Shown: piece by piece, positions 140-62,743 of the stretch | Layout of the letters: each line of letters opens with the position of its first letter | Position numbering within the stretch: position 1 is the stretch's first letter | Assembly: GCA_000934665.2 (NCBI GenBank) | Contig: JYFJ02000726.1 | Location: 1 to 64,000 of the forward strand | Reading direction: 5' to 3' | DNA from: Catajapyx aquilonaris | Taxonomy: Eukaryota | DNA: 64,000 nucleotides | Position numbers and translations under genes: made by a program | The notes under the pieces: model-generated | What the model was told of the DNA's origin: nothing | What the model saw: the letters and a program-made list of their open reading frames with translations, nothing else | Databases searched by the model: none

Positions 140-2346
140 ATGGCGGGGATGAACGAGGACAAGCTGAAGGCCATGGAGGCTGAGATGGACCGGTAATAAT
201 TAATTGTCCAGCATGTTTGAGTGAACTCAAAAGATAGCGACATTTTTGTAGCATTTTATTTAACGCAATGGGTCAAAACACAGGTTTGTGAAGATTTGTT
301 GCCTTGTTACTCTTCATGACCTCCTTCAGCTACACCTGGAAAATTTGTAAAAAGTTGCTCATTAGAACGATGAAATACTACGTAAAGTACAGCGCTGAAT
401 GTACAGAAGCCGACAACTCTTACAACGCACGGTACTTATTATACTATTTTAACTACAGGTTTGAGGCGGAGATTGCCCTGCCGACTCCGCTGACATCGTA
501 TCCGCCTCCGCCGCCACCGGGCCCTGGTCCACGAGTTCCCATCATGGCCAACACGTACAACCAAGTGCAGAAGCAACTGGAGGAGAGGCAACAAGGGTTC
601 GTCTCCTCCATCCTGTACCAACCTGCCGTGGCTGCCATTGCTGCTGCCGCATTCAACACCAACCCAGCCGCTGCTGCTGCCGCCGGTTTATTCGTACCAT
701 CGCAAGTCCAGCGGAACCCCATCAGTACGCATATTTTATTATTTATCATTATTGTTCCCCCCATCAAATCAAGTTAATTGATAGCCTGTGCCTGTATCTT
801 CCTCCAGAACCAGAGAATCCAGTTGTGATCAGCGCAACCCCGAAGGTGTACAGCTCCAAGCAGATCGGGAAGAAGCTGCCACCGCCTCCGATGCCAGAGC
901 CACCCCCGCCGCCTAAGCGTCCGGCAATGATTACCATAGCTGGTATGCTCCCAAGCGTACTGTCCGCCACAGGGGAGCAGCGGAAGCCCCCAGAGATTCC
1001 CAGGCCACCCCCGCCCCCCATGGCCTCCTCCTCCTCCTCCTCGATGAGCAATGACGACAGTAAAAAGGGCAAGAAGCTGAAGAAACTGGTGCGGACGGCT
1101 GGTGGGCAAGTCTGGGAGGACACTTCCCTGGCGGACTGGGACCAGGACGACTTTAGGATATTTTGCGGGGACCTCGGGAACGACGTGACGGACGAGGTGC
1201 TGTCTAGGGCATTCAGCAAGTTCCCCTCCTTCATGAGGGCAAAGGTCGTACGAGACAAGCGCAACAATAAGACAAAGGGCTACGGGTTTGTCAGCTTCAA
1301 GGATCCACAGGACTTCATTCGCGCCATGAAGGAGATGAACGGTGAGTCTCTGACTTGAATTTTGCAAGCTTAAAGCATGACAATAAATTGCGACAAGAGC
1401 GGACAAGACATTTCAACAAGCAATGCAGATAAAGCCAATTTCATTTGTCGGTGAATTGTAGAGAGCCTCAGCCTGTACACAATCACATATATTAAAAGCC
1501 AAATTTTTTTTTATGGCCAGGGGAAGTACATCAATGCTAATTTTTTCGGTGCACATACTCTTCCCAAGTTAGTGTACAAAACAGGGTGCAATCACTTATT
1601 TACCAAGCGGCCCCCACCCGTACGAGACGAACAATTGCGGGAGGGCAGCTGCAGGTCGCCTGGTTGGGCCGGCTGACACCTGCTTGTGGTTGCTCTCGGG
1701 CGTCTTATGTGACGCAGCGTCTTCTCTAGCATGGTCCACTTCATGCTGTCGCCTAAATCTGAAATATGGGCAGTCACAACAACGCACGTGGCAAAACCGC
1801 AAGTACTTACGCAGGGTAGTAGTAAGACGGGTCGAACTCCGATCCGCCTGCTCCCCACCCGCGGGACATGAAGAAGTCCCGCTTTTTGAGCCCCCCGTCC
1901 TGAGGGGTTGTCCACAGCACCTGAACCGCAGCCGCAGCCTGGTCCTTCAGAACCAGCGCTGTCACCAGCATAAGCCAGACACACACACGGATTACATGTG
2001 CCATTATTAGCACCCGTTAGGACGGCTACCTTTGCCAAGTATAATGTGACCCTGTAAAGTGAGGAATTGAAACTGTGGCCTGCAGGGCTGTCTCCCCCTT
2101 AGTTTTATATGAAAAGGCGCCTCCAGAGGTGCGTCGGCGCCGCCCCCCAACCGTCGGCGCCCCCCTCTTTTTTTCTCTCTCTCTCTTCAGTATATACTAC
2201 AACTGGACGTATTATTTCCAGGTCGCTACGTGGGTTCCAGGCCGATCAAGCTGCGCAAAAGCACCTGGAAACATCGCAACATGGACGTGGTTCGAAAGAA
2301 GGAAAGAGAGAAGCAGGCGCTGCTCAGTCTGGTCAACGGACGCTGA
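140..2346 (+). CDS. RBM42: RNA-binding protein 42 (single RRM, U4/U6.U5 tri-snRNP-associated); exons 140-192, 459-724, 808-1341, 2222-2346
   Basis: N-terminus MAGMNEDKLKAMEAEMDRFEAEI; RRM signature RTAGGQVWEDTSLADWDQDDFRIFCGDLGNDVTDEVL...KTKGYGFVSFKDP...EMNG|RYVGSRPIKLRKSTWK; all introns GT-AG and phase-consistent. Confidence 0.95.
1596..2004 (-). CDS. Putative neuropeptide precursor (118 aa) nested antisense in RBM42 intron 3; exons 2004-1811 and 1758-1596
   Basis: Hydrophobic signal peptide, KKR, RR and RR cleavage sites, C-terminal G-K-stop amidation signal; 52-nt GTAAGT...TTTCAG intron joins the two ORFs in phase 2; internal repeated motif FxSxGWG. Confidence 0.8.
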
Positions 2347-2625: not shown

Positions 2626-2817
2626 GTGCCTTGAAGGGACCACCTTCAGAACCCTACTTGTCCCCTCAGCAGCACATGACGCAACAATACCACCTCAATC
2701 AACCATCCCGCACATCACAAAACAATGAGCACAAAATGACGCATCTGCATCACTATCGAACCATATCAGTAATTAAACCAATGTCAACAATATATCGATA
2801 ACAACTAATGTCGGTGA

Positions 2818-3099
2818 TTAATATTAGTTATTATATCGGCTATCAGCTAAATTATGACCACTAATACATTAGGAGTCACATTAATGTAGCTGTATCACTA
2901 TAATGTCGTCGATAATAACTAATGTTAATATTATCGACATTAGTTGTTATCGATATTGGTTATTAATGATATAAGTTAGGTTTGATAGTATTTAATATTA
3001 GTTATTATCGACGACATTATAATGATACAGCTATTAATGTGACTACTAATATATTAGTGGTCATAATAGCTGCTGATAGCCGATAATAACTAATATTAA
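2818..3099. repeat. AT-rich long inverted repeat (about 115-bp arms) with a further partial copy to about 3200
   Basis: 2821-2935 is an imperfect reverse complement of 2984-3096; motifs ATATTAGTTATTATCGACGAC and ACTAATATATTAGT recur at about 3136-3197. Confidence 0.8.
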
Positions 3100-4235
3100 T
3101 ATCGATTATTAATATGGCACTAATATCGATTATTGATATTAGTTATTATCGACGACACGACTGATACGGCTATTAATACGACTACTAATATATTAGTTGC
3201 GTAGTTGAAAGAGCTAACATGGATCAGCAATATGTCGACAATGAGTGACTAATATTAATTATCGATATAAGTAATATTGGTTAAGCAATGATTGTGCCGA
3301 TTCGTCGTTTGCGTAAATTGTGATTACTAATGTAGGCTATTATATCGCATAGCTATAATACTAGTTGCTGAATGGCCATGTCAATTACGTAACTAATATA
3401 TTAGTGATATTAGTTATGTTGATAGCACCTATATAGTATTAGTTGCTGATCATATGCAAAGTATAATTCACAATCTGTGACTCCGCCCCCTGTACTGTAA
3501 GCAATAAGCTAACTCATCATACTTGAATTCACTTGAATCCATGTTCAGCAATATTAGAGGGCAGTATGGCGCCCTGGTGGACTTTGTCCGCGCGGTGACT
3601 CATCACCAACGTGCTTGTAGTACTACTGTCCCCCTGAGAGTGGCAGTAGTGTGCAGACCTATGCGCCAACTGGTAGTTGCATATTGTACTACGTCCAAAT
3701 TGGGAGGGTGGGCCAAGCAGTGTTGCCAATATTTGGCAACGAGTCCGCTTACATGTCAATATTATAGGAATCAAAGGAATGGTGTATATAAGTTACGCCG
3801 ATAGTTCTGATATCAATGATGTATTTGTTAGTAAAGGGATGCGATGACGCAGGTGCTTGGAAAACCTGCGAGGTGGGTACTAATTAGGCTTCAATTAGCA
3901 GCTAACACGAGCTTGAAAGAGAATCAAGAGTGGCAGGGGAAATGAATATGAATGTAAAACCAGAAATTGAATTTTTCTCTCTCTAAAAAACCTTGATGTC
4001 AGCAACAACTGCTAAGTTAGCAGTGGGACTAAAATTACACCCATTGTTTCAACCCCCCTCAATTTCAGTAAAAGAGAATAATAATGATGATTATTATAAT
4101 AATTGAAGCTGACTTCCTCACCAAGGCAACCCCGCGAGTTTATTTATAATATCAGTGTTGGCCTGTAACAACCAAGGGGATGTTCCTGATCGGAGACAAG
4201 TGGTTACTGATACGCTGACCAAGGACTCCCAGGAG

Positions 4236-6990
4236 ATGTCGGATTACGGGTCAGAAGAAGAGGAGGAGTTAGGACCCAGCATCGGGGTAAGGGTCAACCC
4301 CCCCAAAATAAATTAATTCCAAAAAAAAAAAAAAATCAGGATCGTTCGAAAATGGCCCAAAATCCAACATGGCCTCAATTTCTAATAAAGAAGACAATCT
4401 TTCTTTGTCTTTAATATCCCGAGCACGCGTGGGTAGCTCTGAATGTACAGGGATAGAGAGAAAGAAGAGATGGTTGGGGGGGGATGTTGGAGGGGATTAT
4501 TATGGCGAAGGCGGAATTCATTTCCGACTAATTGAATCAGGTCAACTGTCTTGTGGCAAGGATCAAGAGGGGAATTTCAATTAACCGGATCCTTCATATT
4601 AAGAGGGGGGGAGGCCCTCATCTCAGGAGGGAGGGATCTACTTCATTCCCCATATATAGGCCTACTTATAACCTAATTGCTCTACTTCTTGATCAGAATG
4701 GGTTTGTTGGGAGGGAATTATTGCGATTTAACTTCAGCTCTGATGGAGACTGGAGGTTAACTTAATGTCTACCTATTTTTTCAGCACGATTTCCATTAAT
4801 AAATCCATATTTATTGAAATACGCATTCAATTAATCAATTCATATTTATTGAAATACTCATTAAATATTGTAATTGATATGTACATTTTTAATTTAGTAA
4901 GTAATCCTTTTTTGAATTATGTGATTAATATTAGAGATGCCTATTTGTGTTAAGTTATTCATATTCATAGATAGATTCATCGAAAAACCGGCTGGTTTTA
5001 TCATATACCGAGCTCGGTGAAACCGGTCCTTGAATCTTTAATTGGTTAATATTATAGTTGCCAGCAAAATACGTCCAGCTTTTAGGTGGCCACGAATACA
5101 CGCGACTTCAACGAATTAAAATAACAATTAAAATAAATTGCACCTAGTAAGAGCACAAATACGTCAAAAAAAACATCAAAGAAATGCTGTCATTAAATCC
5201 ACATATTGTTAGCCCAAAAGATGATTAAAAAATTGGGATTGAACACTTTGTAGTGTGTATACCCCCCCCCGGCAAGCTGCAATTAGTGCTAAAATTACCT
5301 GATTATGCATTGCGAACGTGCGTCGTGGTTTAATTAGCCTTCATAATAAAAGCTGTTAATCGGTTGAGAGTTTTGTTGTTGTTGTTTTTTTTTGAACGGA
5401 ATAACCTTTAGGCCTACCCAGAATAAGCTGGATTTGTACGTCACGTACCCCCCACAATTGACTAGAATCGCATAGAAACGTCTAGAAAATTGGGTTGGAA
5501 CGACTACCGAGAATCGCAGGCTTGTACATAGATTAATATTATTTTAATATATTCGAGCAGGTTGCGTAACACAACGCAGCAGCGATGCGCGTCCATATTA
5601 TTAATTATTAATGCGCAGTCGTTTGTGAATACCCGATGTGAGGTGTAGTCCACTTTTGTCTAATTAGCGCAAATACTGCATTGCACTCAGCGAAAGGCCC
5701 ACTGTTTAATTAGCACAATTATATTCATATAAATTATGTTAATGACAATTTCAGTAAAAATGAAGTCTGTGGGGGGTGGTGAAAAAAACAAGAAAAAAGA
5801 AAAAGGTTAGCAGAGCGTGGTTTCGATCCACGGACCTCTGGGTTATGGGCCCAGCACGCTTCCGCTGCGCCACTCTGCTTGGGTGAGGATAGCCTCGTTC
5901 AAAAGGGGCCTTCATGCTGCCGGGTGGGCGGGGCGTGGGACGTCAGCCCGTCAGCAGGGAGCCAATCGGAACGGGGGGAGGGAAATTTCGAATTTGGTAC
6001 TGACAGTACTGTACATTTGCAGGAGTACGACGGTGATCGTAATGAGTTGCAGCAGCGACATGGGAAAGGGAAGGCTCTGCTCCCCAACGGTGATGTGTAC
6101 GAGGGGGAGTACAAGTACGGGAGGAGGCACGGACGGGGTGTGTACAAGTACAAGAGAGGTCGTGGAGCACGCTACGAGGGGCAGTGGTACATGGGGCGCA
6201 AGTATGGCTCCGGTACCTTCTACTACCCGGATGGATCCCGATACGACGGACACTGGCAGGACAACAAGCGCCATGGGTTCGGTACTTACACCTACACCAA
6301 CGGCGACGTGTACGAGGGCTACTGGGAGAACAACGTCCGCCAGGGACAAGGGCTGTACATCCACAAGGCATCTGGCGCAAAGCACATGGGCAACTGGGAA
6401 GGAGGGCACAAGCTAGGTGACGGCATGCTCATCACTGGCGAGAGGAGGTACATGGGAAACTTCAAGAACAACCTGGTAAGTCACACCGCAACACGTTACA
6501 AACATCATTAATATATGTAGGTACTTAAATTACAATTGTAGTCAATAATGATAAATAAGTCAATGTGTGCCCACAGCCGGAAGGGCCTGGCCAGTACGTG
6601 TTCCCACTCTTGGAGTGCCAACAGGCCGGGACGTACGAACAGGTTCTGGCCCCAACGGAGGATGGGGAGGTGAACATTGCCCCCGGACTGGTCACCCAAC
6701 TGGACGAAGGAGAGGAGGGCGAGGAGATGCAGGAAGGCCCCAAGATGATGGCCCTGTGGAAGACCAACGCAAAGGCCACCCTTGTGTTCCCACCGGACGC
6801 CGAGTTGCCTCCGTCCAAACTGGATCGGCCAAAGACACCCCCGTTGCCCAAGACCCCACCCGCTGGCGGAAGCGAGCAGGAAGAGGAGGCCTACCAGCTG
6901 CTGCTTGACGTGGCACCACTGGGCACCCCGAGGATGACCCTGGAACAGGACCCTTCCTCAGGGAGTGACATCCTCCTGGCGGCAGACTAG
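4236..6990 (+). CDS. RSPH1: Radial spoke head protein 1 homolog (MORN repeats); exons 4236-4286, 6023-6475, 6577-6990
   Basis: MSDYGSEEEEELGPSIG|EYDGDRNELQQRHGKGKALLPNGDVYEG resembles the RSPH1 N-terminus; tandem MORN repeats; PEGPGQYVF...CQQAGTY C-terminal block; AATAAA at about 7056. Confidence 0.9.
5808..5879 (-). tRNA. Initiator tRNA-Met (CAT), copy 2, inside RSPH1 intron 1
   Basis: Identical 72 nt to copy 1; oligo-T terminator downstream on the minus strand. Confidence 0.97.
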
Positions 6991-8947: not shown

Positions 8948-10904
8948 TTACTTGCTGACATTGCCTTCCTCCTCCTCCGCTTCCTGGTGATGCTCCGCTA
9001 CGTACAGGGCTGGGTCAATCACCTAAAATGAAAAGGTGTTAGCTTCACGTTGTTGACGGAACTGCCGATACACGAACTGGACGGCACTTACCTTTGGTAT
9101 GGGCTTGATCTCTGTTCCCAGCTCCTGCTCGATGCGGTGCAAGTTGAAGCGGTCCTCGTAAGTGATGAGGTTGATGGCAATTCCGAGATGTCCGAAGCGA
9201 CCTGAGCGTCCGATGCGGTGCAGATAGGTCTCTGCCATCTTGGGGAAGTCAAAGTTGATAACCACGTTGACGGCCTGAATGTCTATACCTCGAGTGAAGA
9301 GATCTGAGCAGACCAGGTTGCGGCAGAGTCCGCCGCGGAAGTCGTGGAACACGCGGTTGCGGTGGGCCTGGGCCATCTTTGCGTGGATGTAGTAGCAGGA
9401 GTAACCCAGTTCAGTTATCTTCTTTGCCAGCAGCTCCACACGTTGAGTGGAGTTGCAGAAGATTATGCTCTGGTTGATCTGCAGCTTGGAGAAGAGAGTG
9501 TTGAGGCAGTGGACCTTCTGCCTCTCCTGCACGAAGGCATAGTATTGGGTCACCCCCTTGAGAGTCAGCTCGTCCATCAGGTTTATCTCGTAGGGATGCC
9601 TCAAGTGCTTCACCATGAATTGCTCCACGGTCAGGGGGAACGTGGCCGAGTACAGGAGCACCTGCCTTGTATTAGGCAGGCATGAGATCGCACGATCCAG
9701 CATTCCCTTGAAATCCTGCGACAGGAGCTTGTCCGCCTGCAAAACAAATCACCACCATAGAAAACCTCTTTCAGGTAAAAAAAAAGGACAAGCCAAAGCT
9801 TGAGAAAGAAACACTCACCTCATCTAAAACTAGAGTCTTGCAGTGGTCCATATGAGCCACTTTCTTCTCCATCAGGTCCAGGATGCGGCCCGGTGTGGCA
9901 ATGATCACGTGAACTGCAAAACAAGAGTTAAGTTACGCCCATGTGTGACTTGACATGACCACTCATTGATTACCAACCTTTCTCGTAGATCCTCATTATG
10001 TCGTCCTTGAGGTTGGTTCCTCCTGTTGTGACCATCACTCTGATGCCCATGTGCTTAGCCAACTCGATGCAGATCTGACTAGTCTGGAGGGCCAACTCTC
10101 GTGTGGGTACTATCACCAGGGCTGGAAACGAATTTGGAGCATGTATTTATCACATGCATAGCTTTCCGACAAGCTCAAGTCGAAGGCCTGTTACGTGACT
10201 TGGATCAGAAGCAATTCTCATTCACAAACATATGTAGGGGAATCCAACGATTCTCATCATATCCATGTCACACAATTGTGAGGCTTTGTAAGTTGCTTTT
10301 AACCAGCCCACGGCTATTGCAGCAATCGTGCCCAAATGTTAAGTTAAAAACCCTCAAAGTTTTGAAGCAAAAAAGAACAGCTTAGCTTTTAAAAATATTT
10401 ATGGTTACGGGCTCGGTTCTCACCTTGAATGTAGTCCTTTGATGGATCGACCTGCTCAAGGATGGGGATGGAATAGGCACCAGTCTTCCCAGTACCATTC
10501 TTGGCTCGTGCGAGAATGTCCCTTCCGCTAAGGGCGATGGGGATGCTGGCCTCCTGGATTGGAGAGGGCTTCTCCCAGCCCTTCTCGAAGATCCCCATCA
10601 GCAGCTCCCGCTTCAGGCAGAAGTCTTCAAATTCATTGCCCTTGCGGTCTGTGACATCTGAGGTCCTGCGTCGTGTGTCCTTTGCAGGCAGCTTCAGCTT
10701 CGCCTTCCATCCCTTGTCCTCCTTCAGTTTGTCTGCATCACTGTTGTTGCTACACATGGTACACGAAGCAAGCGATCAGTTACCTGCGCCAAGACAATTA
10801 CACGTGACCCGAAACACTTACATGGCATTGTTCTGACTGTTGATGTTGTTGACCATAGGTTTCACCGGGGTGCTGTGATTGGTCAGGTTCACATGGGACT
10901 CCAT
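8948..10904 (-). CDS. DDX6: DEAD-box RNA helicase DDX6/Me31B; exons 10904-10822, 10740-10424, 10121-9978, 9913-9819, 9736-9092, 9022-8948
   Basis: [87 protein letters not shown] junctions in phase. Confidence 0.97.
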
Positions 10905-15954: not shown

Positions 15955-18900
15955 TCAGAGGTAACAGCTTTCTGATGAGAATGCGGGGTTGATGAAGCTG
16001 CTGTTTGATTGCGGGACTAGGTGTCTCTCGAGGTCGGTCCAAAATGTAGGGGATCCCCAGCTTAGTCGGGGGCATGAGGAGAATGCGGAGGGAAGATCCA
16101 GGCTTGCGTCGCCGTTGGATATGAGCATGGCCACTAAGCTTGGGAACTGAAACGATACGGTGCGATTGGCATTATTGCGGATCTAGAAGTCGCGCACACT
16201 AATCTGCACTAAACAGTTCCGCTTCTTTCTCAAGTCATGCTAACTACTATTGCAGCTTTGGATGGGCACGGACACAAACTTGCCGGATGCCTTTCATTGT
16301 ATCTTACATGACACCATGTAAGACGCACCTTTCCCCCCCAAAAAATTTCACAAAATTGCCCTGTCTTATATGCGGAAAATACCATATTAAACCTCTTTCC
16401 CCCCTTAATATGATCTACTGAAATGCGGGTGTGTCTTATATGCCCGTGCATGTCAAATACGGTAACTTTGTAGTGTTGGATCAATATAGACATGTGGTGC
16501 TCTTAATGACAGTACCTTTTCAGTCACTTCAGTCAGTTTCAGTTGTAGCTCCAGTGTTGAGCTGGATGGTGTATGATGGCTAATGATGATTCCTATCCAT
16601 GAAGTTTGGGATGTAATCTCTCCTATGGTGTACCCTTTTTGGATTAGGTGCGGAACGATTTCGGACAGCACTGTTTCCTTATCTTCAGTAGCGTACAGCA
16701 AGAACCCGGTGTGTGAATTTTCAAGGGTTCGGATCCCTTTTGGTCTGGCCTTGACCAAAAAGTGTGTTACCTAAAAGCAGACTATGGTCAGTTGCAGTAT
16801 TGCGGCACATTAACGTAACACTTTTACTCTTCTGCTGTTAGTTCTCATCCCGACTGCTGTCAGAAACAGAATGAGGGCAGCTGTTATGGCAGCCACAGCA
16901 TACAGAGACGCCGTGAGAGCCATGTCTTCACCGCTAAAGCCATCCTGCAGTGGAGCAGCTTGATGCATTTCCAGCACCTGGAGGCCAACCATTTCCGATG
17001 GTCCACTGTGACATCGGATTGATGTTGGATCTTCCAATATGGCTTCATTCTGCTTGCTCCATTCCTGTTGGGTGAAGATGCAACAATGAACGTAGCAGGC
17101 AAAAGTGATGTGTCCAATAATAATTTTCCTTACAATTATGTGAGACACATAAAACACCTAGCCACACTATAATGCACCATTTATATGCATGTAGTTGGAA
17201 ATATTGACATTCTCCCGAATATAAAGTTGAAAGCCTTACCAGTAGAAGGTGTGCATGTTCCGGGCTGCAGTCCCAAGGATTGTCGCCCATTGCCAAAGAC
17301 GACAAGCGAGTCCCAATTGCACCCAGCTGTTCTATTCTGCTTAGCTTGTTCTTGGACACGTCCACCATTCTAAGAGCGCCTGACCGTCCCTTGCCCTCTT
17401 CCAGATTGCAACTTCCTGGGCTGTGGATGGTTTCACCAGCATTCATCCTGAGGTCTTCCATTTGATTGTTGCACAAATCAAGGCTCTCCAGTTCTGGAAG
17501 CTCCGGCAGGAAGCAGATGTCCGAGATGGAATTAGAGGACAGGTTGAGGACCCTCAGGTGAGGAAATGCTCTGGCCGAGGCTGCTGGCAAGCTCTCCAAG
17601 GCATTGTATGACAAGTCAAGCTCCCAGAGAAGTGGCAGATATACAGTGGGGTGGAATGGAAGCTCCACAATTTGGTTCATGGACAGGTCCAGTTGTTGTA
17701 GATTTGGCAGCAAGCTCAAGTCCTAAAATTAAAAAAAAACATTTTCACTAAAATTACTCGATTATGACATGGAAAATCCCACTCTTCTCTTTTTAAAAAT
17801 CCTGTCGTCATACCTGATCAGAAATGTTGTTGAGTTTATTTCCTCGAACGGTAAGAAATCTGACTGATGATGCACAGGACTGAGACTCCATATGCCCGTC
17901 ACTGTCAACTGGTTCCATGGGGCCTAACAGCGTTATCAGGCTGTTGTTTCTCACACTGACTTCCTCAAGGTGGCAATACGCAGGCTGCAGAAGATCATAC
18001 AAAGATTCCAGCTGATTCCCATCAGCTTGTAAAACCCGTGCCCAGTCTGGTATGGCTTCAGGAAGGTGGATTAACCCTGTGAAAATTATAACACATTAGC
18101 GGTGGTGTGGGGATTGTGCAAAAGCAGGTCTAACAACCTTTGTATCTGCAGTCCACCAGTCGTTTGCTTTTTTGGCACCTGCAAGCACGAGGGCACATAT
18201 CGCAAGGTGCCAGAAGAAGATCTTGTTCCGCCACGGACAACAGTTCTTTTCCAGCCATGAAGGGAGGCTGGCTACACACAAAGTCCAGAGTATGATTATC
18301 CCGCATCGCCTGATGCCAAAGTCCTAACAACGCACAGTCACATCGCCATGGGTTCCCTCCTAGATTTAATGTCATTGCAGAATAATAAGGAGGTAGATCC
18401 AGATTTGAGAGTGAAAGAAGTCTGTTCCCTTGCAAATTCAGGGTTTCTAAAACTGGGAAGAACTCCCAATCAGGATCGGAATTAGTCAGGGTGTTGAGTA
18501 TGTTTCGTGAAAGGTCAACGTGCTTCAAAACAGTCAGATTGTGAAAGATGGACAAGTCGAAGGCAGGTAGAAAGTTGGAGGACAGGTTTAGCATTTGAAG
18601 ATGACGCAAATCGGAGAATGCACCAAACTCCAATTTGGACAGTCGATTTGCGCTCAAGTCCAGGGTTGTCAGGTACGGTAGACGCTTCAAGAGAGAAGTC
18701 TCTTCCAGATTATTCAGCTTGTTTCGACTCAAGTCAAGCCAGGTCACGTTCCTCGTAAGTTTGATCAAGGGTTGTTGAGCCTCCTTGTAGTTCAGTCTGA
18801 AAATTTATGAACTCATTTAAACCCTTTTGTTACCATACAAAAAAATCAGCATACCCTAAGGTGCGGATGGCATTCTTAATGAGGACCAGATGTGCCGTTA

Positions 18901-19852
18901 TATTTGGAATGTGCCTGAGCAAGACTTCCACATCAGATAAGCTGTTTGATGAGAGGTCCAGAAGATCCAGTTGCAAACCTTGCATTCCTCTTATGTGCTC
19001 CAAACTGTTGTGGTTCAGCAACAGTACTCTCAGGGTCTTCGCAGCACTTGCAGAAGAAAACGCAGCTTCCGCCGAAAACAGCCTCAACTGGTTATGACTC
19101 AGGTCCACTTGTTCCAATCCGCTGATTCCTTTGAGCGACTCTTTCTCCAGCAGCTCCAAACTTACATTCCGAACAACAAGACGTTTGGTCCGCAGACTGC
19201 ATAAGCCATCTCGAGGAAGCAAGCGGATGGTGCCATGAAGCTGGAGAGATTCCAGTTCCAGAGTCTTCAATGCCCCCTGTGCCTATGTTTACAAAAGGCT
19301 TAAATTAATTACCAGAGAATTTTGAAAATTCGATTTAAATATTATTAGCCATGTTTGCGGATTAAAAATGGCGGTAAGCCAAACTCTGATTTTATGTGTT
19401 GGAAAAATATGTGTTTTTTTTTTGCTTTCTTTTGCTTAACTACATTTTTACTGTATTTTTAACTATTTTTAACAAATTGTAATAAAATTATGTGGCACTG
19501 TATAAATGATAACAAGGCTTTACTATGCTCCATATGTCAATACAGTATTACATACCTGTTTTTGTGACGTATTGGCCTTGATAAAAATCAGGAAAAAAAC
19601 CCTCTATAAACCTAAAAATAACTCACCTTTGCTTTAAACCTTTGAAAATCTGCGAACGTGTCGCAAACAACATTCTTGACGTCTCCATCACATTTGCATG
19701 GGAAGTACAGCACATTTGAATCACACTGTGCATCCGATAACAAAACGCTCGAGGTCAACATACAAGTCACCACAGCAAAACATCTGACACCTAAAGAACA
19801 AAAAAAATTTAAGTACTTTACAAGAAATTATTGCTTTATACTCACCGGACAT
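15955..19852 (-). CDS. Toll-like receptor, multiple-cysteine-cluster type, divergent TIR (about 895 aa); exons 19852-19846, 19790-19627, 19282-18855, 18796-18138, 18076-17814, 17722-17240, 17064-16828, 16770-16516, 16146-15955
   Basis: Signal peptide MSGVRCFAVVTCMLTSSVLLSDA, LRRNT, LRRs, internal NPWRCDC plus CPRACRC cluster, second LRR block with NPWDCS, TM ASLYAVAAITAALILFLTAVGM, TIR box1-like HTGFLLYATEDKETV and box3-like LSWGSPTFWTDLERHL; exon lengths sum to an intact frame. Confidence 0.85.
16315..16464. mobile_element. Degenerate pogo/Tigger-type MITE fragment in the last Toll intron
   Basis: TAAGACGCAC and GTGTCTTATA motifs and an AAATACGGTA terminus. Confidence 0.45.
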
Positions 19853-21497: not shown

Positions 21498-31427
<9,930 letters not shown>

Positions 31428-34333: not shown

Positions 34334-35124
34334 TCAGACTCCTATCAGTCCGCCCTTTTCTATTTGCTCTAGTGTGGCCTGCAGTTTAGTCTCGAACAAC
34401 TCGCACCTCACTGGCATCTCTAGTGCGTAGAACGGGTTCTTCAGGGCGTAATCAGCGTACAGCTCGTATATCCGCCTCAGCAGGGCCTCCACTCCAGCTT
34501 GCTTCGGGTCTGCTATAGCGATGATCTTGGTTCCGGTCAGGGTCTGGAGGCAGTAGAGATGGAATGTGTCTGACTCCAACACAGATATCCCGGAAGAGTG
34601 CGGCTCTGGGCTAAGCTGCGAGGAGATGGCATACAAGGGGTAGAACATGCTCGCCAAGAAGATCTTCTCATTGGTGGACATATGGGACCGGCCAAAACGG
34701 AGGTTCACCGGAAAGCTGTCCGAGTTCTCCAGAAGCTCCAGAGCATCACGGCCATCCTCCAGCATACGGCCCACCACCGGTATGCCATTCACAGACATGA
34801 GAGTGTGGCCCACTGTATCAAAAGATATTAATGTCCTAATAAGTTAATTGTCCTACAACTGCTGACCAAGACTTATCGTGACCTGTGTCTATCCAGGTCT
34901 TGCTAAGGTCAAAACTAGTGACAGTTTCTAGGCCTAGTCCCGCCCTCACCCTTGATTCCATCCTGCTGGCCGAAGACAACCACAATCCTCTTGTTCTCGC
35001 AGGCCAGCTTGAGGTCCAGAGGGAAGCTGAACGTCTTCTCGTTCTCTATATCCGGTGGATTGTGGTCGTAGTTGTAGATCAATCCTCCGGATTTCGACAG
35101 AATGTAGACGCTGAAGACCGCCAT
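34334..35124 (-). CDS. TRAPPC4: Trafficking protein particle complex subunit 4 (Trs23/synbindin), 217 aa; exons 35124-34950, 34812-34334
   Basis: [17 protein letters not shown]...[58 protein letters not shown]. Confidence 0.95.
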
Positions 35125-36236: not shown

Positions 36237-39200
36237 TCACAACATATTGCTGCTGCTTAAGAACCTCCACTTCTGAGAGGTTATGCTTGTCTCGCATGTC
36301 TCAGCTGTGATTCCTGCTGTTTGGAAGTAGCGAGAGTCCATGCAGAGATTGTAATTTGGATGATGGATTATCATTACTTCTCCATCCTCTTTTCTCTTCC
36401 ATTTCTGTAACATGGAAGAAATTACGTTTATCACAGCCCAGTGTTGCGTCAGGTGTCATCGGCACCATTTACTGACCTGTGTTGCAGATCCCAGACACAT
36501 CCGAAGCCTTACTGGTGCACCCGGTCGAGGATCCATTAAAGTTAAACACAGATCTTGATGTCTAATGAGGTCATCCTGGGTCAGAGACCATTCCTGGAGT
36601 ACAACAATCGATAAATGTACACTTGTTGGCAATTATTTGAAGCGGCATAGCCCATACCTGGTTTCCACCAGCATTATGGCAGGGATGCAGACCAACGTTC
36701 CCATCAGCCAGCCTTCCCATGGTATCCATGCAGAGCCTGCCCTGTTGCAGGGACCCCACGGAAAGGCCTGAACTCTCGGGAACCTTCAGTTCTGGGTAGA
36801 CATTCTCCAGGTACCAGCGGAAGGGCTTGCACTGAAGTTTCCTCTTCAGTTCCAACCTGCCCTGGATATTGCCAAATGGAACACTTTTGGCCAGAGGGAC
36901 AGCCGAGTAGTAGAAACGCTTGTACTCGTCCATCCATACTTCTGCAGCTCTCCTTGTGTTTCTGGCAAACACTGTGCCCGAACCCCCAGGGAAGGAGTAA
37001 GGATGCTGCTTACGGAACACGTGACCCACACGTGAGCATGGGATTATCTCCAAAGAACCACCGCATTGCCACACACGGAATGAAATTTCTGAAAGGTAAG
37101 TGAAGATATATTAATGCGTTTCACTTGAATATTAATTTCAATAAGGTCTAGTTAATGCTTATACATTCGACCTAATATTAACAACTGATATTTAACAGCC
37201 TCTACAAGCAAACTGTCAAAAAGTAAGTGGTTAATAATCACCATGGTGCAACAAAATTGCTAACTAACTTGGGCCATCAATTAGAACAATGTAATTGCAC
37301 CCAAAAAAATGCAGCACCTCTGTAAATACCACTGAACCCAACTTATTGAAACAAGTCAGAAAGTATAACGCATCGTATACTTTTATAGCCCCATGGATGA
37401 TATCATCTGCCTCGTAAAAATGGTGCATGAAATCAGAAAGTACCCCTCCATTGGCTACACCCTAATTGCATATTGCTTTCAGTTTTATGTGGCACAAAAG
37501 GCATCCTTTGAATTTGCCCATAATGCATTTTTCTGAATATTGCAATCCATCTCACTGAATGATCAACTCACTTGAGTGCGGTGCTCACAAAGAGTTTGTG
37601 ACAACATAATTTCTTGTTTTTCTAAGCTCTGTGTAATCACAAATCTTCCAAGTGGATTGAACTCCTTTATTAACAGAGAAAACTTTCTATTTAATAGTAA
37701 GATTGGTTATGAAACTTCGTGACTGATGGGTGGTACTCCCAACAAATTACGAAGGCGCACATGCTTATATACCTACCCAAATTTTCTCCTCCCCATATAT
37801 CCATCTGCATATCATATTGCCCCAGCTGTTTGAAGTAAAGCCGATCTATCACAAAAAGCCCTCCTGCAATCATGGGCGTCCTGCGAAACATAATACATCA
37901 TATTAACATACCACAGGCCAAATTATGCAAATAGAAGCAACCTAAATAAATGTAACCCAAACCTGATCGGACGAGTGGGATCCTCCTTTCTCTTTCTCCT
38001 CTCATCGGAAGTCAAAAATTCCCACTTGAACACAAGATTCCAGTCGAATCCTCCTCTCAAATCAGCAGAGGCGCCGATGTACTGGAAGCTGTCCATGCTT
38101 ATCACATCAATGACTGGACACACCACTCTTGTTCGATTCTTGAATATAAAACGAAATGAGCGTGTTAATCAACTACTCCTGAAAAGTGATGGGGGCAATG
38201 CATGCATAATAAAGCAAGTTCTCAAAAGCCACAAAAGAAGTTTCACGTACTTGGAAGCAGCTTTACAACATGGTAACCATAAATCATAACCCAGCACTTA
38301 AAATTCGAAAATCTAGTCGGATAACATTCACTAAATTTGAAATTAAAATATATCATTGCAAAAAAAAAGGGGGGTTCATATCTCATATAAACATCATAAC
38401 TGACAATCCAGGCATCAAGAGGCAGCAAAATCATTTTACTGCGAATCAATAAATCATGATATAATGCATTCGTGACATTGCAACGTAGCTAAATCACATC
38501 CATCCGATTCACAGTGAAAGTGACCAACCTCAGCAACTCTTTCTAGTAGTGGCTCAATCCAGTTGACATTGCATTCGCAGTGACTATCAAGAAAAGTGAG
38601 CACAGGGGCAGTGGCTGAGTTAGCTCCCCTCACGCGGGACCTCATCAGACCCTCCCTTTGTTTGTTCCGCAGCACCAGAACCTTCTCCATCTTGGCCAAT
38701 TCTTGTCCATCCGATGCTGCAGGAGAGAGATAACATTGTTTTAAAGAATTCTTAGGGCAATAAAAGGTTTCACTACTGTACACTTCCAAAAATCTGAAGA
38801 ACAATATACCGGTACTCAAGGTTCCCAGCCGAGAGCAGCTAGTAACTGTCCATCGGACGAGAAGGTGTGTGCACAGTTGCACTTCCACCATAATCACCTG
38901 CTCCCATGTAATTTAACCTTAATGAATGAACAATGCACCACAACTCAAGTCAACACTTCCTTCATGTTCACCCGGCATTAACACATAATGAGTCATGTCT
39001 CATTTTAACTGCTAAAAATGGCTTATGGAAAGTAGCAATTTATTGCTTATTCCCAAGTCGGGCTCCCTTCAACCTTCGAAAGTCAACATCCTTCCCATGT
39101 ACAGCAATTATTATGAGCCCCTACTTCAAGCGTACAAAAAAACTCACGGTCATCACTGAAGTCATCCACCAAGATGATCTCTCGGATAAGGTGCTCAGGG

Positions 39201-57100: not shown

Positions 57101-57978
57101 CCAAAAATTATGAAGGCACCCCTTTACATTCAGTATAACAGGGGGGTTGGATCTTAAATTTTTTGTCCACATGCAAAGTTTTCACTCCACAGACTTTCAT
57201 CCGGAGTGCAAATTGCTGACTTGGAGTGCTTAATTTTTAATTATTGGATTTAGCCGTGTTGAAAAAAACAGGACCAACTGGAGTGCAACATTTGCACTCC
57301 AGGGCTCAAGTCTGCAGTGCTATAAATAATTTTGAAGTGCAAATTGCACCTTTGCATCCATATAATTTTGACGCCTGGTATTCTTGTGAATACTTCATAG
57401 TGAAAAGCAAAATAGCAAATAGAGTTACATTACACTTCAACAATATTATGACGTACGGTAATTATAAAATATTCCCATTCATACGCAGGTTTATTTTTAC
57501 AAGTTTTAATTGAGTTAGCGGCTCTCGTCATCGCTGACTACCCCTTATAGGGAAATGTTGTGATGGTGATGATGATAAAATATTAATAAAACTACACATG
57601 CTAGGAAACTATATGATATTCATTATTTTCACATGCACCGCTGCGATTTACTGAAATTAACATAGAGCGCAGTAATGTGTACACTGCCATTCCGCAGCAA
57701 TCGCCAGACAAGGTAATTTCATCTCATGATCTACTCCCAATAATAACATCAGCTGTCTTTTTTTTCAAGTATGCAATGCAGTACCCATTATTATTACGGT
57801 AATTATTATTCGCTGGTACCCCCCATTCATTTGGGAGAGGCCGTGACCCTCTGACAATTAAGTTTGTACCGACCTGTGGTTTGGTGTCCCTGTCGAGTTG
57901 CAGGTAGTAGAAGAGGGCACATAGTCCGAAGCTGAGAACGAGCATTAACCTCAGATTCCTCCTGAGGACTGGCGCCAT
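36237..57978 (-). CDS. GALNT2: Polypeptide N-acetylgalactosaminyltransferase 2 (pgant2), about 601 aa; exons 57978-57874, 42390-42041, 39450-39352, 39215-39148, 38716-38529, 38138-37963, 37880-37777, 37088-36658, 36593-36477, 36404-36237
   Basis: Type II anchor [68 protein letters not shown] (DxH); [19 protein letters not shown]; ricin-B lectin domain; phases consistent. Confidence 0.95.
41179..41255. repeat. Short element with an 18-bp inverted repeat
   Basis: GCTCAAATTAGCCTCCAA ... TTGGAGGCTAATTTGAGC. Confidence 0.65.
41743..42002. mobile_element. Fold-back MITE, Tc1/mariner-like, copy 2
   Basis: TA-CAGTG...CACTG-TA; internal inverted repeats such as GAGCCGTGCGAGTAAGAA / TTCTTACTCGCACGGCTC; homologous to 11901-12177. 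Confidence 0.8.
45053..45110. repeat. (ATT)n microsatellite
   Basis: Perfect ATT run. Confidence 0.95.
46492..46622. repeat. Minisatellite, about 5.5 units of 24-25 bp
   Basis: Units CTCATTGAGATCGGCTGGTCCGCG and CTCATGGAAGAGCGGCTGGTCCGTG. Confidence 0.9.
50431..50548 (+). mobile_element. Dispersed repeat family, copy B
   Basis: Shares the core with 28061-28246. Confidence 0.7.
52851..53498 (+). CDS. Histone H1-related protamine-like (PL-type) sperm nuclear basic protein, 215 aa, intronless CDS, nested antisense in GALNT2 intron 1
   Basis: Winged-helix pattern [29 protein letters not shown]...[24 protein letters not shown]; last 52 aa contain 30 Arg; TATATAAA at 52823; AATAAA at 53638-53643. 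Confidence 0.82.
   Translation: MSQEAPTPKMGPKSPPKAHRSSKGTLAAKAAAALSLTAATSQIPDISVNPSPPQNQQTQGRRVQYRRILLNAIAHQRGRQGCLLKDITSYMSSQIEQGPSKSEVLKGLCMALKRAENDGMVVSTKKGTYRLTTSGKRTAKAVEIGATGKGRGTLRESTLELIERRRRRRRRGGRKKGRKGRKGRRRRRRGRRGRRGRGRKRSRRGRTARSSRKTR
55121..55310 (-). mobile_element. Dispersed repeat family, copy C (inverted)
   Basis: ATCGGATGTTTGTCCGACCTGATAG...CTGAAGGTGGCAGGAG...GCGCCATCTAT is the reverse complement of the core. Confidence 0.75.
55304..55378. repeat. 75-bp palindrome abutting repeat copy C
   Basis: ACTACACTGTAAACCTCAAAACATTAAA / TTTAATGTTTTGTGGTTTACAGTGTAGT. Confidence 0.75.
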
Positions 57979-58648
57979 GATCTTCTTCTGGTCTGTCGTG
58001 GATGATGATGATGAGGGGGGCTACGAGGAATGGCCCGTGGTGGGACCGACGAGCGAGTGGCCCGCCGGCCGATGTCTCATTCCACCCTGCTCCTCCTGGC
58101 AGGCCCTGGTCACTGCACCACACTGACGGGGCTTGGCCTCTCTCGCTCTCTCTGTGGCCTACTCCTCCATGATCACCACACAGCAGCACTACTCCCAGCA
58201 CAAACAGACACTGGTAGGCACTGGCAGACATTCGCATTGTGACCGCCAGAGTGGCGCTGCAGGTCAGGGAGGTGACTAAAACGTGACGTCATCGCCGCCT
58301 CCTAGTAGTTCATATTTCGGACACCACGGCGCTGGATAGCCATGGTTCAAAAAACTGAAAGGCGCCTAATTGTCAGTAATTAAAATATTTAATGCGGATC
58401 CATCAACAGTACTTATATTTCATTGTCATATGTGCACATGCAATGAGGTTCAATAAATCAGTGCAACACCAGTGTACGTTCCCTCGATTTAATAAAACGT
58501 TCCCAACTGCACTGAGATTTAGATTGGTACATGTACACAAATATCGCTACCCCCAAACAAGTAGTTCTTCAGTCAATCCCAATCGCGCAAGTCACAATCA
58601 CTTCCGAGAGTACAAAACACTTGGCACCGCAGCAGGCGATCCGTCCCC

Positions 58649-61786: not shown

Positions 61787-62743
<957 letters not shown>

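Follow-up and report, generated by a model that had tools for sequence, protein, structure and literature searches.

A candidate two-exon prepropeptide gene antisense to RBM42 in Catajapyx aquilonaris and its motif-level likeness to AKH, corazonin and GnRH

Introduction

Corazonin is an amidated 11-residue pGlu peptide that is located directly behind the signal peptide of its precursor. In AKH preprohormones, the signal peptide is followed by the hormone and then by a cystine-bridged C-terminal portion. According to Li et al. (2016, PMC5024129), true AKHs have a length of 8, 9 or 10 residues, pGlu at position 1, an aliphatic or aromatic residue at position 2, FS, FT or YS at positions 4-5, Trp at position 8, and a C-terminal end of the form W-, WG- or WGX-amide. 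The same paper applies the label 'proto-AKH' or GnRH-like to annelid and brachiopod peptides of more than 10 residues that display only two to four of the AKH hallmarks. The RGWamide/APGWamide peptides, as characterized by Thiel et al. (2021, PMC8557429), were described for trochozoans. Here the Trp residue itself is amidated (GW-G-basic), the precursor carries many N-terminal copies of the peptide, and two conserved C-terminal Cys residues are positioned around a phase-0 intron.

In the present study, we analysed a window of 64,000 nucleotides, namely positions 1 to 64,000 of contig JYFJ02000726.1 from C. aquilonaris, and focused on its minus strand between positions 1596 and 2004. On balance, we lean toward the view that this region is an unannotated two-exon orphan gene, antisense in the last RBM42 intron, which encodes a 118-residue secreted prepropeptide without a recognised family.

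Results

The plus-strand exons of RBM42 (140-192, 459-724, 808-1341 and 2222-2346) join into an open frame of 325 residues, and the last two of these exons flank the intron that hosts the candidate (1342..2221, plus strand). None of the 120 RBM42 matches listed was near-identical, and close relatives therefore appear to be poorly represented in the libraries. The RBM42 comparison agrees with an arthropod origin of the sequence. The match to a moth RBM42 scores higher owing to a duplicated segment in the moth gene model, not because of closeness.

On the minus strand, coding exon 1 (1811..2004; ORF P0001) runs from an ATG at position 2004 over 194 nt, comprising 64 codons and two bases of codon 65, and its ORF ends at a TAA within the intron donor. 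Coding exon 2 (1596..1758; 163 nt including the stop) contains ORF P0002, which starts at 1757, and terminates with the TAA at 1598-1596. These exons are separated by a predicted phase-2 intron of 52 nt (1759..1810, minus strand; GTAAGT...TTTCAG), the removal of which would yield a joined coding sequence of 357 nt with 118 codons plus the stop. This is in agreement with the first-pass annotation, which had proposed that two ORFs are spliced across a 52-nt canonical intron at 1810-1759 and that the resulting gene is nested antisense within an intron of RBM42. An alternative in-frame acceptor is located 6 nt downstream (exon start at 1752) and would lead to a 116-residue product. No Rfam family was detected inside the host intron, and a self-search revealed no second copy or paralogue of the candidate region within the window.

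The predicted product starts with a signal-peptide-like N-terminus of about 25 or 26 residues (1927..2004, minus strand), in which Arg6 is combined with a hydrophobic core of 13 residues and a subsequent run of Ala; a home-made heuristic, as distinct from SignalP, placed the candidate cleavage site after residue 25 or 26. Further along the same strand there are three putative cleavage sites, namely KKR at residues 40-42 (1879..1887), RR at residues 67-68 (1749..1754) and RR at residues 98-99 (1656..1661). The KKR site directly precedes a first GWG block (residues 43-54; 1843..1878) that includes the motif FMSRGWG (45-51) and is followed by A-G-G with no basic residue. The last RR site precedes a C-terminal peptide (residues 100-116; 1605..1655) with a second GWG block, FVSYGWG (108-114). 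Gly-Lys at residues 117-118 (1599..1604), immediately before the stop, is a predicted amidation signal that would convert the peptide to a Leu116-amide, as judged from the general rules of prohormone processing. Cys occurs just once, at residue 8 within the signal peptide, and the mature part contains none. Gln106 lies six residues past the last RR site with no cleavage site in front of it, and the intervening residues P-A, A-A and L-P amount to three X-Ala/X-Pro dipeptides. Basic sites bracketing short peptides and a Gly-basic end, both of which are generic properties of amidated precursors, are thus present, and the N-terminal signal peptide that such precursors carry is recognised by the home-made heuristic.

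All elements of the anatomy described earlier for this locus, that is the signal-like N-terminus, the KKR, RR and RR sites, the Gly-Lys-stop and the F-x-S-x-G-W-G motif occurring twice, were found in the sequence. The accompanying statement that there are two peptides holds insofar as two GWG blocks exist, but only the peptide with block 2 has an amidation signal. Block 1 lacks a downstream cleavage or amidation site, Gln106 lacks a cleavage site on its N-terminal side, and the two blocks would therefore not be processed alike.

A signal-like N-terminus, a small size and the lack of a domain would suit many kinds of small secreted proteins. Conceivably, the locus could therefore encode a real secreted product other than a neuropeptide, such as an antimicrobial, glandular or cuticle-associated small peptide containing Gly, Trp and Tyr. 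We regard this as improbable, because KKR and the two RR sites flank the repeated motif and because the terminal Gly-Lys-stop is a specific signature of prohormone processing in the regulated pathway. Moreover, the sequence displays neither a Cys framework nor a cationic amphipathic stretch.

The base composition of the candidate resembles that of the RBM42 exons. The GC content amounts to 0.60 in exon 1 and 0.58 in exon 2, with a dip to 0.48 in the small intron, compared to 0.37-0.39 for the surrounding RBM42 intron, ∼0.35 for the other RBM42 introns and 0.56-0.62 for the RBM42 exons. Per codon position (1/2/3), the GC content is 0.65/0.49/0.65 in the candidate versus 0.58/0.46/0.73 in RBM42, position 2 being the lowest in both. 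A codon model trained on 1441 codons from exons of this window with Pfam support ranked the proposed frame first among the six in both exons: the log-likelihood for exon 1 was +8.4 bits versus -5.6 for the next-best frame, and for exon 2 the score was +1.7 versus -0.5, which is a small margin. The best-scoring frame changes across the predicted intron, exactly as the splice model requires. Furthermore, the candidate scored 0.083 bits per codon, which is within the range of 0.063-0.34 that was obtained in a leave-one-out analysis for eight out of nine true exons.

Upstream of the ATG, at a distance of 99-105 nt, a TATAAAA box is present on the minus strand (2103..2109), and no other ATG intervenes between this box and the start codon. 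Counting both strands, TATAAAA occurs 19 times in the 64-kb window, where 12.4 occurrences are expected from shuffles; at this density (19 sites over 128 kb of strand), the chance of finding one at such a position is ∼1-4%, depending on the span allowed. The start codon resides in the context CTAATAATGG, with A at -3 and G at +4. Transcription may start near 2074-2080, which would give a putative 5′ UTR at 2005..2080 (minus strand). An acceptor-like TTTACAG/G near 2046 would leave room for an upstream non-coding exon. Past the stop, no canonical AATAAA or ATTAAA was found within 400 nt; the only signal-like hexamers near the stop are CATAAA (1515-1510) and AATATA (1493-1488), which together span 1488..1515 on the minus strand.

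The absence of a canonical poly(A) signal is one of several observations in favour of the region being a non-functional ORF that arose by chance, i.e. a GC-rich intron stretch that is open in multiple frames, mimics the motifs of signal peptides, splice sites and cleavage sites, and gives rise to no protein. Two further frames, one per strand, are also open over the region, bringing the number of open frames to three, and the openness of the region is therefore cheap evidence for a gene. In addition, the overall codon score of the candidate is matched or beaten by 22 of the 181 other ATG-ORFs in the window and is only ∼1 sd above their mean. The candidate was also picked from among many scanned ORFs, with its motifs chosen afterwards, and no relative was found in the libraries searched. 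The internal repeat depends largely on a G-rich 9-mer common to both blocks. Its score of 33 (ungapped BLOSUM62) was equalled or exceeded in 26 out of 2000 runs in which the mature part was shuffled; it was also attained by 12 of 84 other ORFs in the window, mostly low-complexity or true repeat proteins.

Two sets of observations argue against a chance ORF. Firstly, the signal-peptide rule was passed by 6 of the 213 ATG-ORFs of at least 50 codons in the window. A composite rule required a signal-like start, a GTRAGT donor followed at 40-300 nt by a YAG acceptor, no fewer than 30 further codons, two or more dibasic sites and an amidation site. In the real window the candidate was the only ORF to pass this rule; among null sequences, it was passed in none of 41 windows and, after block shuffling, in only 7 of 3166, with the reservation that both this rule and the test of the repeat were devised after the candidate had been seen. 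Secondly, the TATA box, the start context, the best-of-six frame and the GC dip in the intron are all gene-like, and none of them was used for selection. Taken together, we judge a chance origin to be unlikely, while it is the rival to which we assign the most weight.

Homology searches did not connect the candidate to any described protein. When exon 1 was compared by phmmer to 1.84 billion representatives, five matches with E<=1e-3 were obtained, and all five were fn3-repeat proteins that we consider spurious. At face value, these matches (E 1.4e-7 to 9e-4), which align over residues 16-61 around W-T-T-P-x-x-G-G, could mean that exon 1 is what remains of an exon encoding a fibronectin type III domain. 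We give this idea practically no credence. Each repeat on its own reaches just 20-26 bits, the significance being a sum over 3-9 repeats, and the matches were rejected for this reason. In addition, only ∼30 residues of the 84-position domain are matched, and Pfam fn3 did not match the ORF (no family for P0001 at E<=0.01). The same octapeptide also retrieved an unrelated bacterial protein: the single exon 1 match in metagenomes (one locus) was a bacterial calcineurin-like phosphoesterase with this one octapeptide in common, and it was likewise rejected.

A word-index search with exon 1 delivered 41 candidates among longer proteins, none of which had E<=10, and no candidate among proteins of near length. 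Pfam assigned no family to either exon or to the two other open frames. In the Atlas feature search, exon 2 retrieved nothing and exon 1 only weak leads (best score 0.86). These include clusters of neuropeptide precursors, namely PDH, DH31, NPF and progonadoliberin, at 0.77-0.80, which we treat as a lead and not as evidence. Thus, the phmmer and word-index searches with exon 1 and the Pfam and Atlas searches bear out the earlier view that no named family can be assigned. A main-text literature search with the GWG-core strings yielded no neuropeptide paper among those listed; supplementary peptide lists could hold a match. It should be borne in mind that a core of 8-12 residues is too short to stand out as significant against billions of library proteins.

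Discussion

The view that this locus specifies a secreted, convertase-cleaved and C-terminally amidated precursor, as had been put forward in the first-pass annotation, gains support from the anatomy in combination with the GC island, the frame-specific codon bias, the TATA box and the start context. From these features we infer how an orphan prepropeptide gene at this position would be transcribed and processed and how it could act in signalling. Transcription would begin at the TATA promoter near 2109, and the 52-nt intron would be spliced out. After cleavage by signal peptidase behind residue ∼25/26, a prohormone convertase or furin-type enzyme would cut at KKR(40-42), RR(67-68) and RR(98-99), the basic residues would be trimmed by a carboxypeptidase, and Gly117 would be converted to a C-terminal amide. 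The expected products are a non-amidated peptide of 24 residues (43-66) with GWG block 1, an acidic, hydrophilic spacer (69-97) and a 17-residue Leu-amide (100-116) with GWG block 2. The latter, the predicted amidated peptide, would be the most likely bioactive ligand, presumably for a GPCR.

If real, the gene would represent an orphan peptide-hormone gene overlooked by annotation pipelines, being short, without a homologue in the searched libraries and hidden antisense within a housekeeping gene's intron. Its product would also be a ligand candidate for arthropod GPCRs that are still orphans. A GC island in an AT-rich intron, a change of the best-scoring coding frame over a mini-intron and a TATA box could then serve as homology-free flags for genes of this kind.

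The earlier description of the peptides as GnRH/AKH/corazonin-like stands with respect to the S-x-G-W core, Ser5 and Trp8, but it does not extend to kinship, as three of the six AKH hallmarks fail and the layout differs. At the level of sequence comparison, the likeness to AKH, corazonin and GnRH is one of motif only. Nonetheless, one sub-case of the orphan gene reading, in which the gene is real, would make it a divergent representative of the GnRH/AKH/ACP/corazonin superfamily. A receptor of the AKH, ACP or corazonin type would then be the target of block 2, and block 1 would represent a decayed second copy. Counted from Gln106, block 2 has Leu107 at position 2, Ser at position 5 and Trp113 at position 8, followed by Gly and a predicted amidated end. 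With reference to the hallmarks as given in PMC5024129, this makes two firm hallmarks, aliphatic Leu107 and Trp113, plus a conditional pGlu, the formation of which from Gln106 would need unproven trimming by an aminopeptidase. In terms of that source, block 2 also fits the loose 'proto-AKH' description of more than 10 residues with two to four hallmarks, and S-R-G-W is common to block 1 and corazonin.

Several findings speak against such membership, which we consider very unlikely. The stretch Gln106-Leu116 has 11 residues (17 when counted from RR), positions 4-5 are Val109-Ser110, and the W-G-P-L that precedes Gly-Lys-stop is one residue too long. Moreover, the block 2 peptide ends the precursor instead of directly following the signal peptide, no cystine-bridged related peptide is encoded, and a cleavage site before Gln106 is absent. 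By sequence inspection, no in-phase donor/acceptor pair was found for an alternative splice that would place Gln106 directly behind the signal peptide. None of the sequence searches tied the candidate to AKH, CRZ or GnRH precursors, and a core of four residues can arise by convergence.

When the orphan candidate is placed beside AKH/RPCH, the likeness consists of a small precursor that starts with a signal peptide and, in block 2, of the aliphatic residue 2, Ser5, Trp8-Gly and the predicted amide; the candidate differs in having a second, non-amidated copy and in the distance of Gln from RR. With corazonin, block 2 shares the length of 11 residues from Gln106, Phe at position 3 and the predicted amidated end. 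Block 1, in contrast, starts with Asp43 after KKR, lacks Gln, continues into A-G-G and is not amidated, and it does not show the corazonin layout. Neither block directly follows the signal peptide, and no database search linked the candidate with corazonin. Unlike block 2, the spiralian 'proto-AKH' peptides of PMC5024129 directly follow the signal peptide, and this label is descriptive rather than a test of homology. The candidate resembles the RGWamide/APGWamide precursors of PMC8557429 in its R-G-W-G string and in carrying more than a single Trp-containing peptide. Membership in this family was rejected: neither GWG is followed by a basic residue, the mature part has no Cys, the intron is of phase 2, and the host gene is of the arthropod type. 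The rotifer APGW/AKH precursor of PMC10730642 is a loose architectural parallel only.

The S-x-G-W core makes kinship directly testable. A bolder proposal, to which we attach little probability, is that of a new arthropod branch of the superfamily with a rearranged precursor, carrying two F-x-S-x-G-W-G cores of which the C-terminal copy would be active. After cleavage at RR, a dipeptidyl aminopeptidase would strip P-A, A-A and L-P stepwise, upon which Gln106 would cyclise to leave an 11-residue pGlu...Leu-amide that acts on an AKH/ACP/corazonin-type or an orphan rhodopsin-type GPCR. If so, further cryptic superfamily members with rearranged precursors could come to light. Leviev and Grimmelikhuijzen are said to have proposed trimming of this type for cnidarian preprohormones in 1995, and its occurrence in the arthropod candidate is speculation on our part, by analogy. 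The parallel lies in the three X-Ala/X-Pro dipeptides before Gln106, the stepwise removal of which would expose this residue for cyclisation, and the locus would then offer a bilaterian case of N-terminal processing that has so far been proposed for cnidarian neuropeptides.

The RBM42 locus and its surroundings

The candidate gene is hosted by RBM42; its plus-strand exons (140-192, 459-724, 808-1341 and 2222-2346), once joined, give a continuous open frame of 325 residues. The RRM exon shares 79-86% identity with RBM42 of centipede, spider, sawfly and thrips and 71% with mammalian RBM42, and in alignments the N- and C-terminal parts resemble hexapod-type sequences, which makes an arthropod, and probably a pancrustacean, the likely source. 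An RRM (PF00076) was present in all 120 relatives among the matches listed. None of these listed matches was near-identical to the RBM42 of the window, and the library therefore seems to cover the species and its close relatives poorly. The score of a public moth RBM42 gene model against the RBM42 of the window was inflated by a duplicated RRM segment, which looks like an annotation error. In addition, an AATAAA on the RBM42 (plus) strand at 1382-1387, 40 nt into the last intron, could mark the end of a short isoform without the last exon.

Immediately 3′ of RBM42 lies an AT-rich nested inverted-repeat element (2780-3450) with arms at 2887-2928/2992-3033 (42 nt, 95%) and 2851-2885/3033-3067 (35 nt, 94%), and with direct copies reaching ∼3200. 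It looks like a MITE or a long hairpin; plant-miRNA Rfam matches at this element were far below gathering scores and were dismissed as probable hairpin artefacts. Two minus-strand tRNA-Met (CAT) genes of the same score, 3.25 kb apart (2554-2625 and 5808-5879), are located within an 87-nt direct repeat (2539-2625 and 5793-5879; 95% identical), the first of them ∼200 nt past the RBM42 stop. The window is gene-dense from 5783 to 62740, with Pfam matches to MORN repeats (5783-6508, plus), the C-terminal part of a DEAD-box helicase (9026-9748, minus), LRR exons (17048-19282, minus), Ets (21501-22193, minus), sybindin/TRAPP (34337-34843, minus), glycosyltransferase 2 with a ricin-B lectin (36574-38912, minus) and LURAP (61787-62740, plus).

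Anatomy of the candidate precursor

The candidate lies wholly within the last RBM42 intron (1342-2221), in antisense orientation; the first-pass annotation had placed it antisense in an RBM42 intron. Coding exon 1 (2004..1811, minus) starts with the ATG at 2004, and its frame closes on a TAA within the donor. The intron (1810..1759, minus) has a perfect GTAAGT donor and a TTTCAG acceptor, and coding exon 2 (1758..1596, minus) ends at the stop TAA (1598-1596). The minus strand reads as the proposed join of two ORFs across a canonical intron, and scripted joining of the exons by their coordinates gave a CDS of 194 + 163 = 357 nt, i.e. 118 codons plus stop. Use of an alternative in-frame acceptor 6 nt downstream removes two residues. 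The translated product contains the expected basic cleavage sites (KKR at residues 40-42, RR at 67-68 and 98-99) and amidation signal, Gly-Lys directly before the stop; the end of exon 2 reads RRPAAALPQLFVSYGWGPLGK. The repeated FxSxGWG motif was likewise recovered, as FMSRGWG in block 1 (45-51) and FVSYGWG in block 2 (108-114). Two more frames are open across the whole region (1573-2007, plus, 145 codons; 1592-2098, minus, 168 codons). Neither of them shows a credible start or a Pfam match, and neither scores well for codon usage.

Signs of a gene at the candidate locus

Several signs that the first-pass annotation had not used point to a gene at this locus. The GC content is 0.60 and 0.58 in the exons and 0.48 in the small intron; it is 0.56-0.62 in RBM42 exons, 0.37-0.39 in the 3′ remainder of the host intron and ∼0.35 in the other RBM42 introns. 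As for RBM42, the minimum is at codon position 2. A codon model trained on 1441 codons from Pfam-supported exons of the window ranked the proposed frame best of six in both exon 1 (+8.4 bits; next −5.6) and exon 2 (+1.7; next −0.5). The top-scoring frame thus changes at the predicted intron, in keeping with what the splice model requires. The codon signal is modest: 0.083 bits per codon, with eight of nine true exons at 0.063-0.34 and one at −0.09 (leave-one-out). This value was matched or exceeded by 22 of the 181 other ATG-ORFs of at least 50 codons in the window, some of which are surely real exons.

A TATAAAA (2109-2103, minus) is located 99-105 nt upstream of the ATG at 2004, with no ATG in between. 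Since the window holds 19 such motifs on both strands, the chance of one at this distance and on the right strand is ∼1-4%. The start codon is flanked by A at −3 and G at +4. An acceptor-like TTCCTCACTTTACAG, followed by G, was noted at ∼2040-2062 (minus) inside the putative 5′UTR, so that the candidate could begin with a non-coding exon further upstream and use a different promoter from the TATA box at 2109. Neither AATAAA nor ATTAAA occurs within 400 nt past the stop, where only CATAAA and AATATA were found.

The claimed signal peptide agrees with a home-made rule (positive n-region, 11-residue uncharged core with a mean hydropathy of at least 2, small residues at −3/−1) that was passed by six of the 213 ATG-ORFs of the window, including the candidate. 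A composite rule required a signal-like start, a GTRAGT donor, a YAG acceptor that is pyrimidine-rich and 40-300 nt downstream, a frame that stays open for 30 codons or more beyond it, two or more dibasic sites and an amidation site. The candidate was the sole ORF to pass in the real window, and neither the reversed window nor any of 40 block shuffles yielded a pass. Passes occurred in 7 of 3166 block-shuffled windows (119 for the signal-plus-splice part alone), a rarity that overstates significance because the rule was written after the candidate was seen. Two more signal-like ATG-ORFs are on the minus strand (57830-58237 and 59391-59672), the latter passing the two-exon rule and failing the cleavage and amidation rule. 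When the mature part was shuffled 2000 times, 26 of the shuffles equalled the internal repeat score of 33 (ungapped BLOSUM62), as did 12 of 84 other ORFs of the window, mostly low-complexity or true repeat proteins. The modest codon signal, the missing canonical poly(A) signal and the two other open frames speak for a chance or non-functional ORF, and the scarcity of composite passes speaks against one; such an origin is unlikely. We lean towards a real orphan peptide-precursor gene, a prediction that rests on one genome and is clean and cheap to test.

Search for relatives

With exon 1 as query, an exhaustive phmmer search of 1.84 billion representatives yielded five proteins at E≤1e-3, all of them fn3 multi-repeat proteins. 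Kinship with fn3 was rejected as an artefact, since single repeats gave 20-26 bits around W-T-T-P-x-x-G-G, the scores sum over 3-9 repeats and Pfam fn3 did not match the candidate ORF; the probability of an fn3 relic is negligible. A bacterial phosphoesterase, the one metagenome-scan match, was drawn by the same octapeptide and was likewise set aside. Word-index protein searches with exon 1 gave no relative, Atlas returned nothing usable for either exon, Pfam and Rfam assigned no family, and full-text searches of main texts with the candidate motifs gave no neuropeptide paper among the matches listed. Missing homologues are weak evidence, because no core of 8-12 residues can score significantly in libraries of this size, because close relatives of the host appear absent from them, and because the phmmer and word-index libraries were queried with exon 1 only.

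Predicted processing and products

What is observed is the sequence anatomy, from which we infer expression, processing and a signalling role. A TATA-driven transcript would be spliced once, and the preproprotein would enter the secretory pathway and lose its signal peptide after about residue 25/26. Convertases would cut at KKR and both RR sites, a carboxypeptidase would take off the basic residues, and Gly117 would serve amidation. The predicted products are a short propeptide, a 24-residue free-acid peptide (43-66) with block 1 and a Tyr-Tyr-Tyr run beside acidic residues, a hydrophilic spacer (69-97) and a 17-residue Leu-amide (100-116) with block 2, the product most likely to act as a receptor ligand. 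A secreted protein other than a neuropeptide would share the signal peptide; set beside the basic sites and the terminal Gly-Lys, it seems distinctly improbable.

The two blocks would not be processed alike, because A-G-G comes after block 1 and, in block 2, six residues separate the RR site from Gln106. These six residues (P-A, A-A, L-P) form three X-Ala/X-Pro dipeptides, a substrate pattern of dipeptidyl aminopeptidases, and such trimming was reportedly proposed for cnidarian precursors by Leviev and Grimmelikhuijzen in 1995. On a bolder reading, trimming would expose Gln106, and its cyclisation would yield an 11-residue pGlu...amide peptide.

Comparison with named peptide families

The proposed GnRH/AKH/corazonin likeness is confined to a shared S-x-G-W motif. 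According to Li et al. 2016 (PMC5024129), true AKHs have six hallmarks. Counted from Gln106, the candidate peptide agrees with two of them, Trp at position 8 and, at position 2, a residue that is aliphatic or aromatic; pGlu at position 1 is conditional on the trimming considered above. In contrast, it has 11 rather than 8-10 residues, V-S instead of FS, FT or YS at positions 4-5, and a W-G-P-L-amide rather than a W-, WG- or WGX-amide end. The same paper gives the AKH precursor order as signal peptide, hormone and cystine-bridged C-terminal part, a layout from which the candidate departs because its sole Cys sits inside the signal peptide. Its loose 'proto-AKH' usage (>10 residues, 2-4 hallmarks) would cover the Gln106 peptide, as a descriptive label that does not show descent. 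The S-R-G-W of block 1 also occurs in the corazonin sequence given in the first-pass annotation, but this block has no pGlu, no amide and no position directly after the signal peptide. True membership of the superfamily, as a sub-case of the orphan gene, is quite unlikely. RGWamide/APGWamide precursors, described in PMC8557429 as spiralian, with many GW-amide copies and two C-terminal Cys, do not fit the candidate either. In line with the original view that no named family can be assigned, the searches gave no usable match and the candidate departs from the AKH, corazonin and RGWamide patterns. It fits no named family and would behave as a conventional neuropeptide precursor, processed by convertases and amidated.
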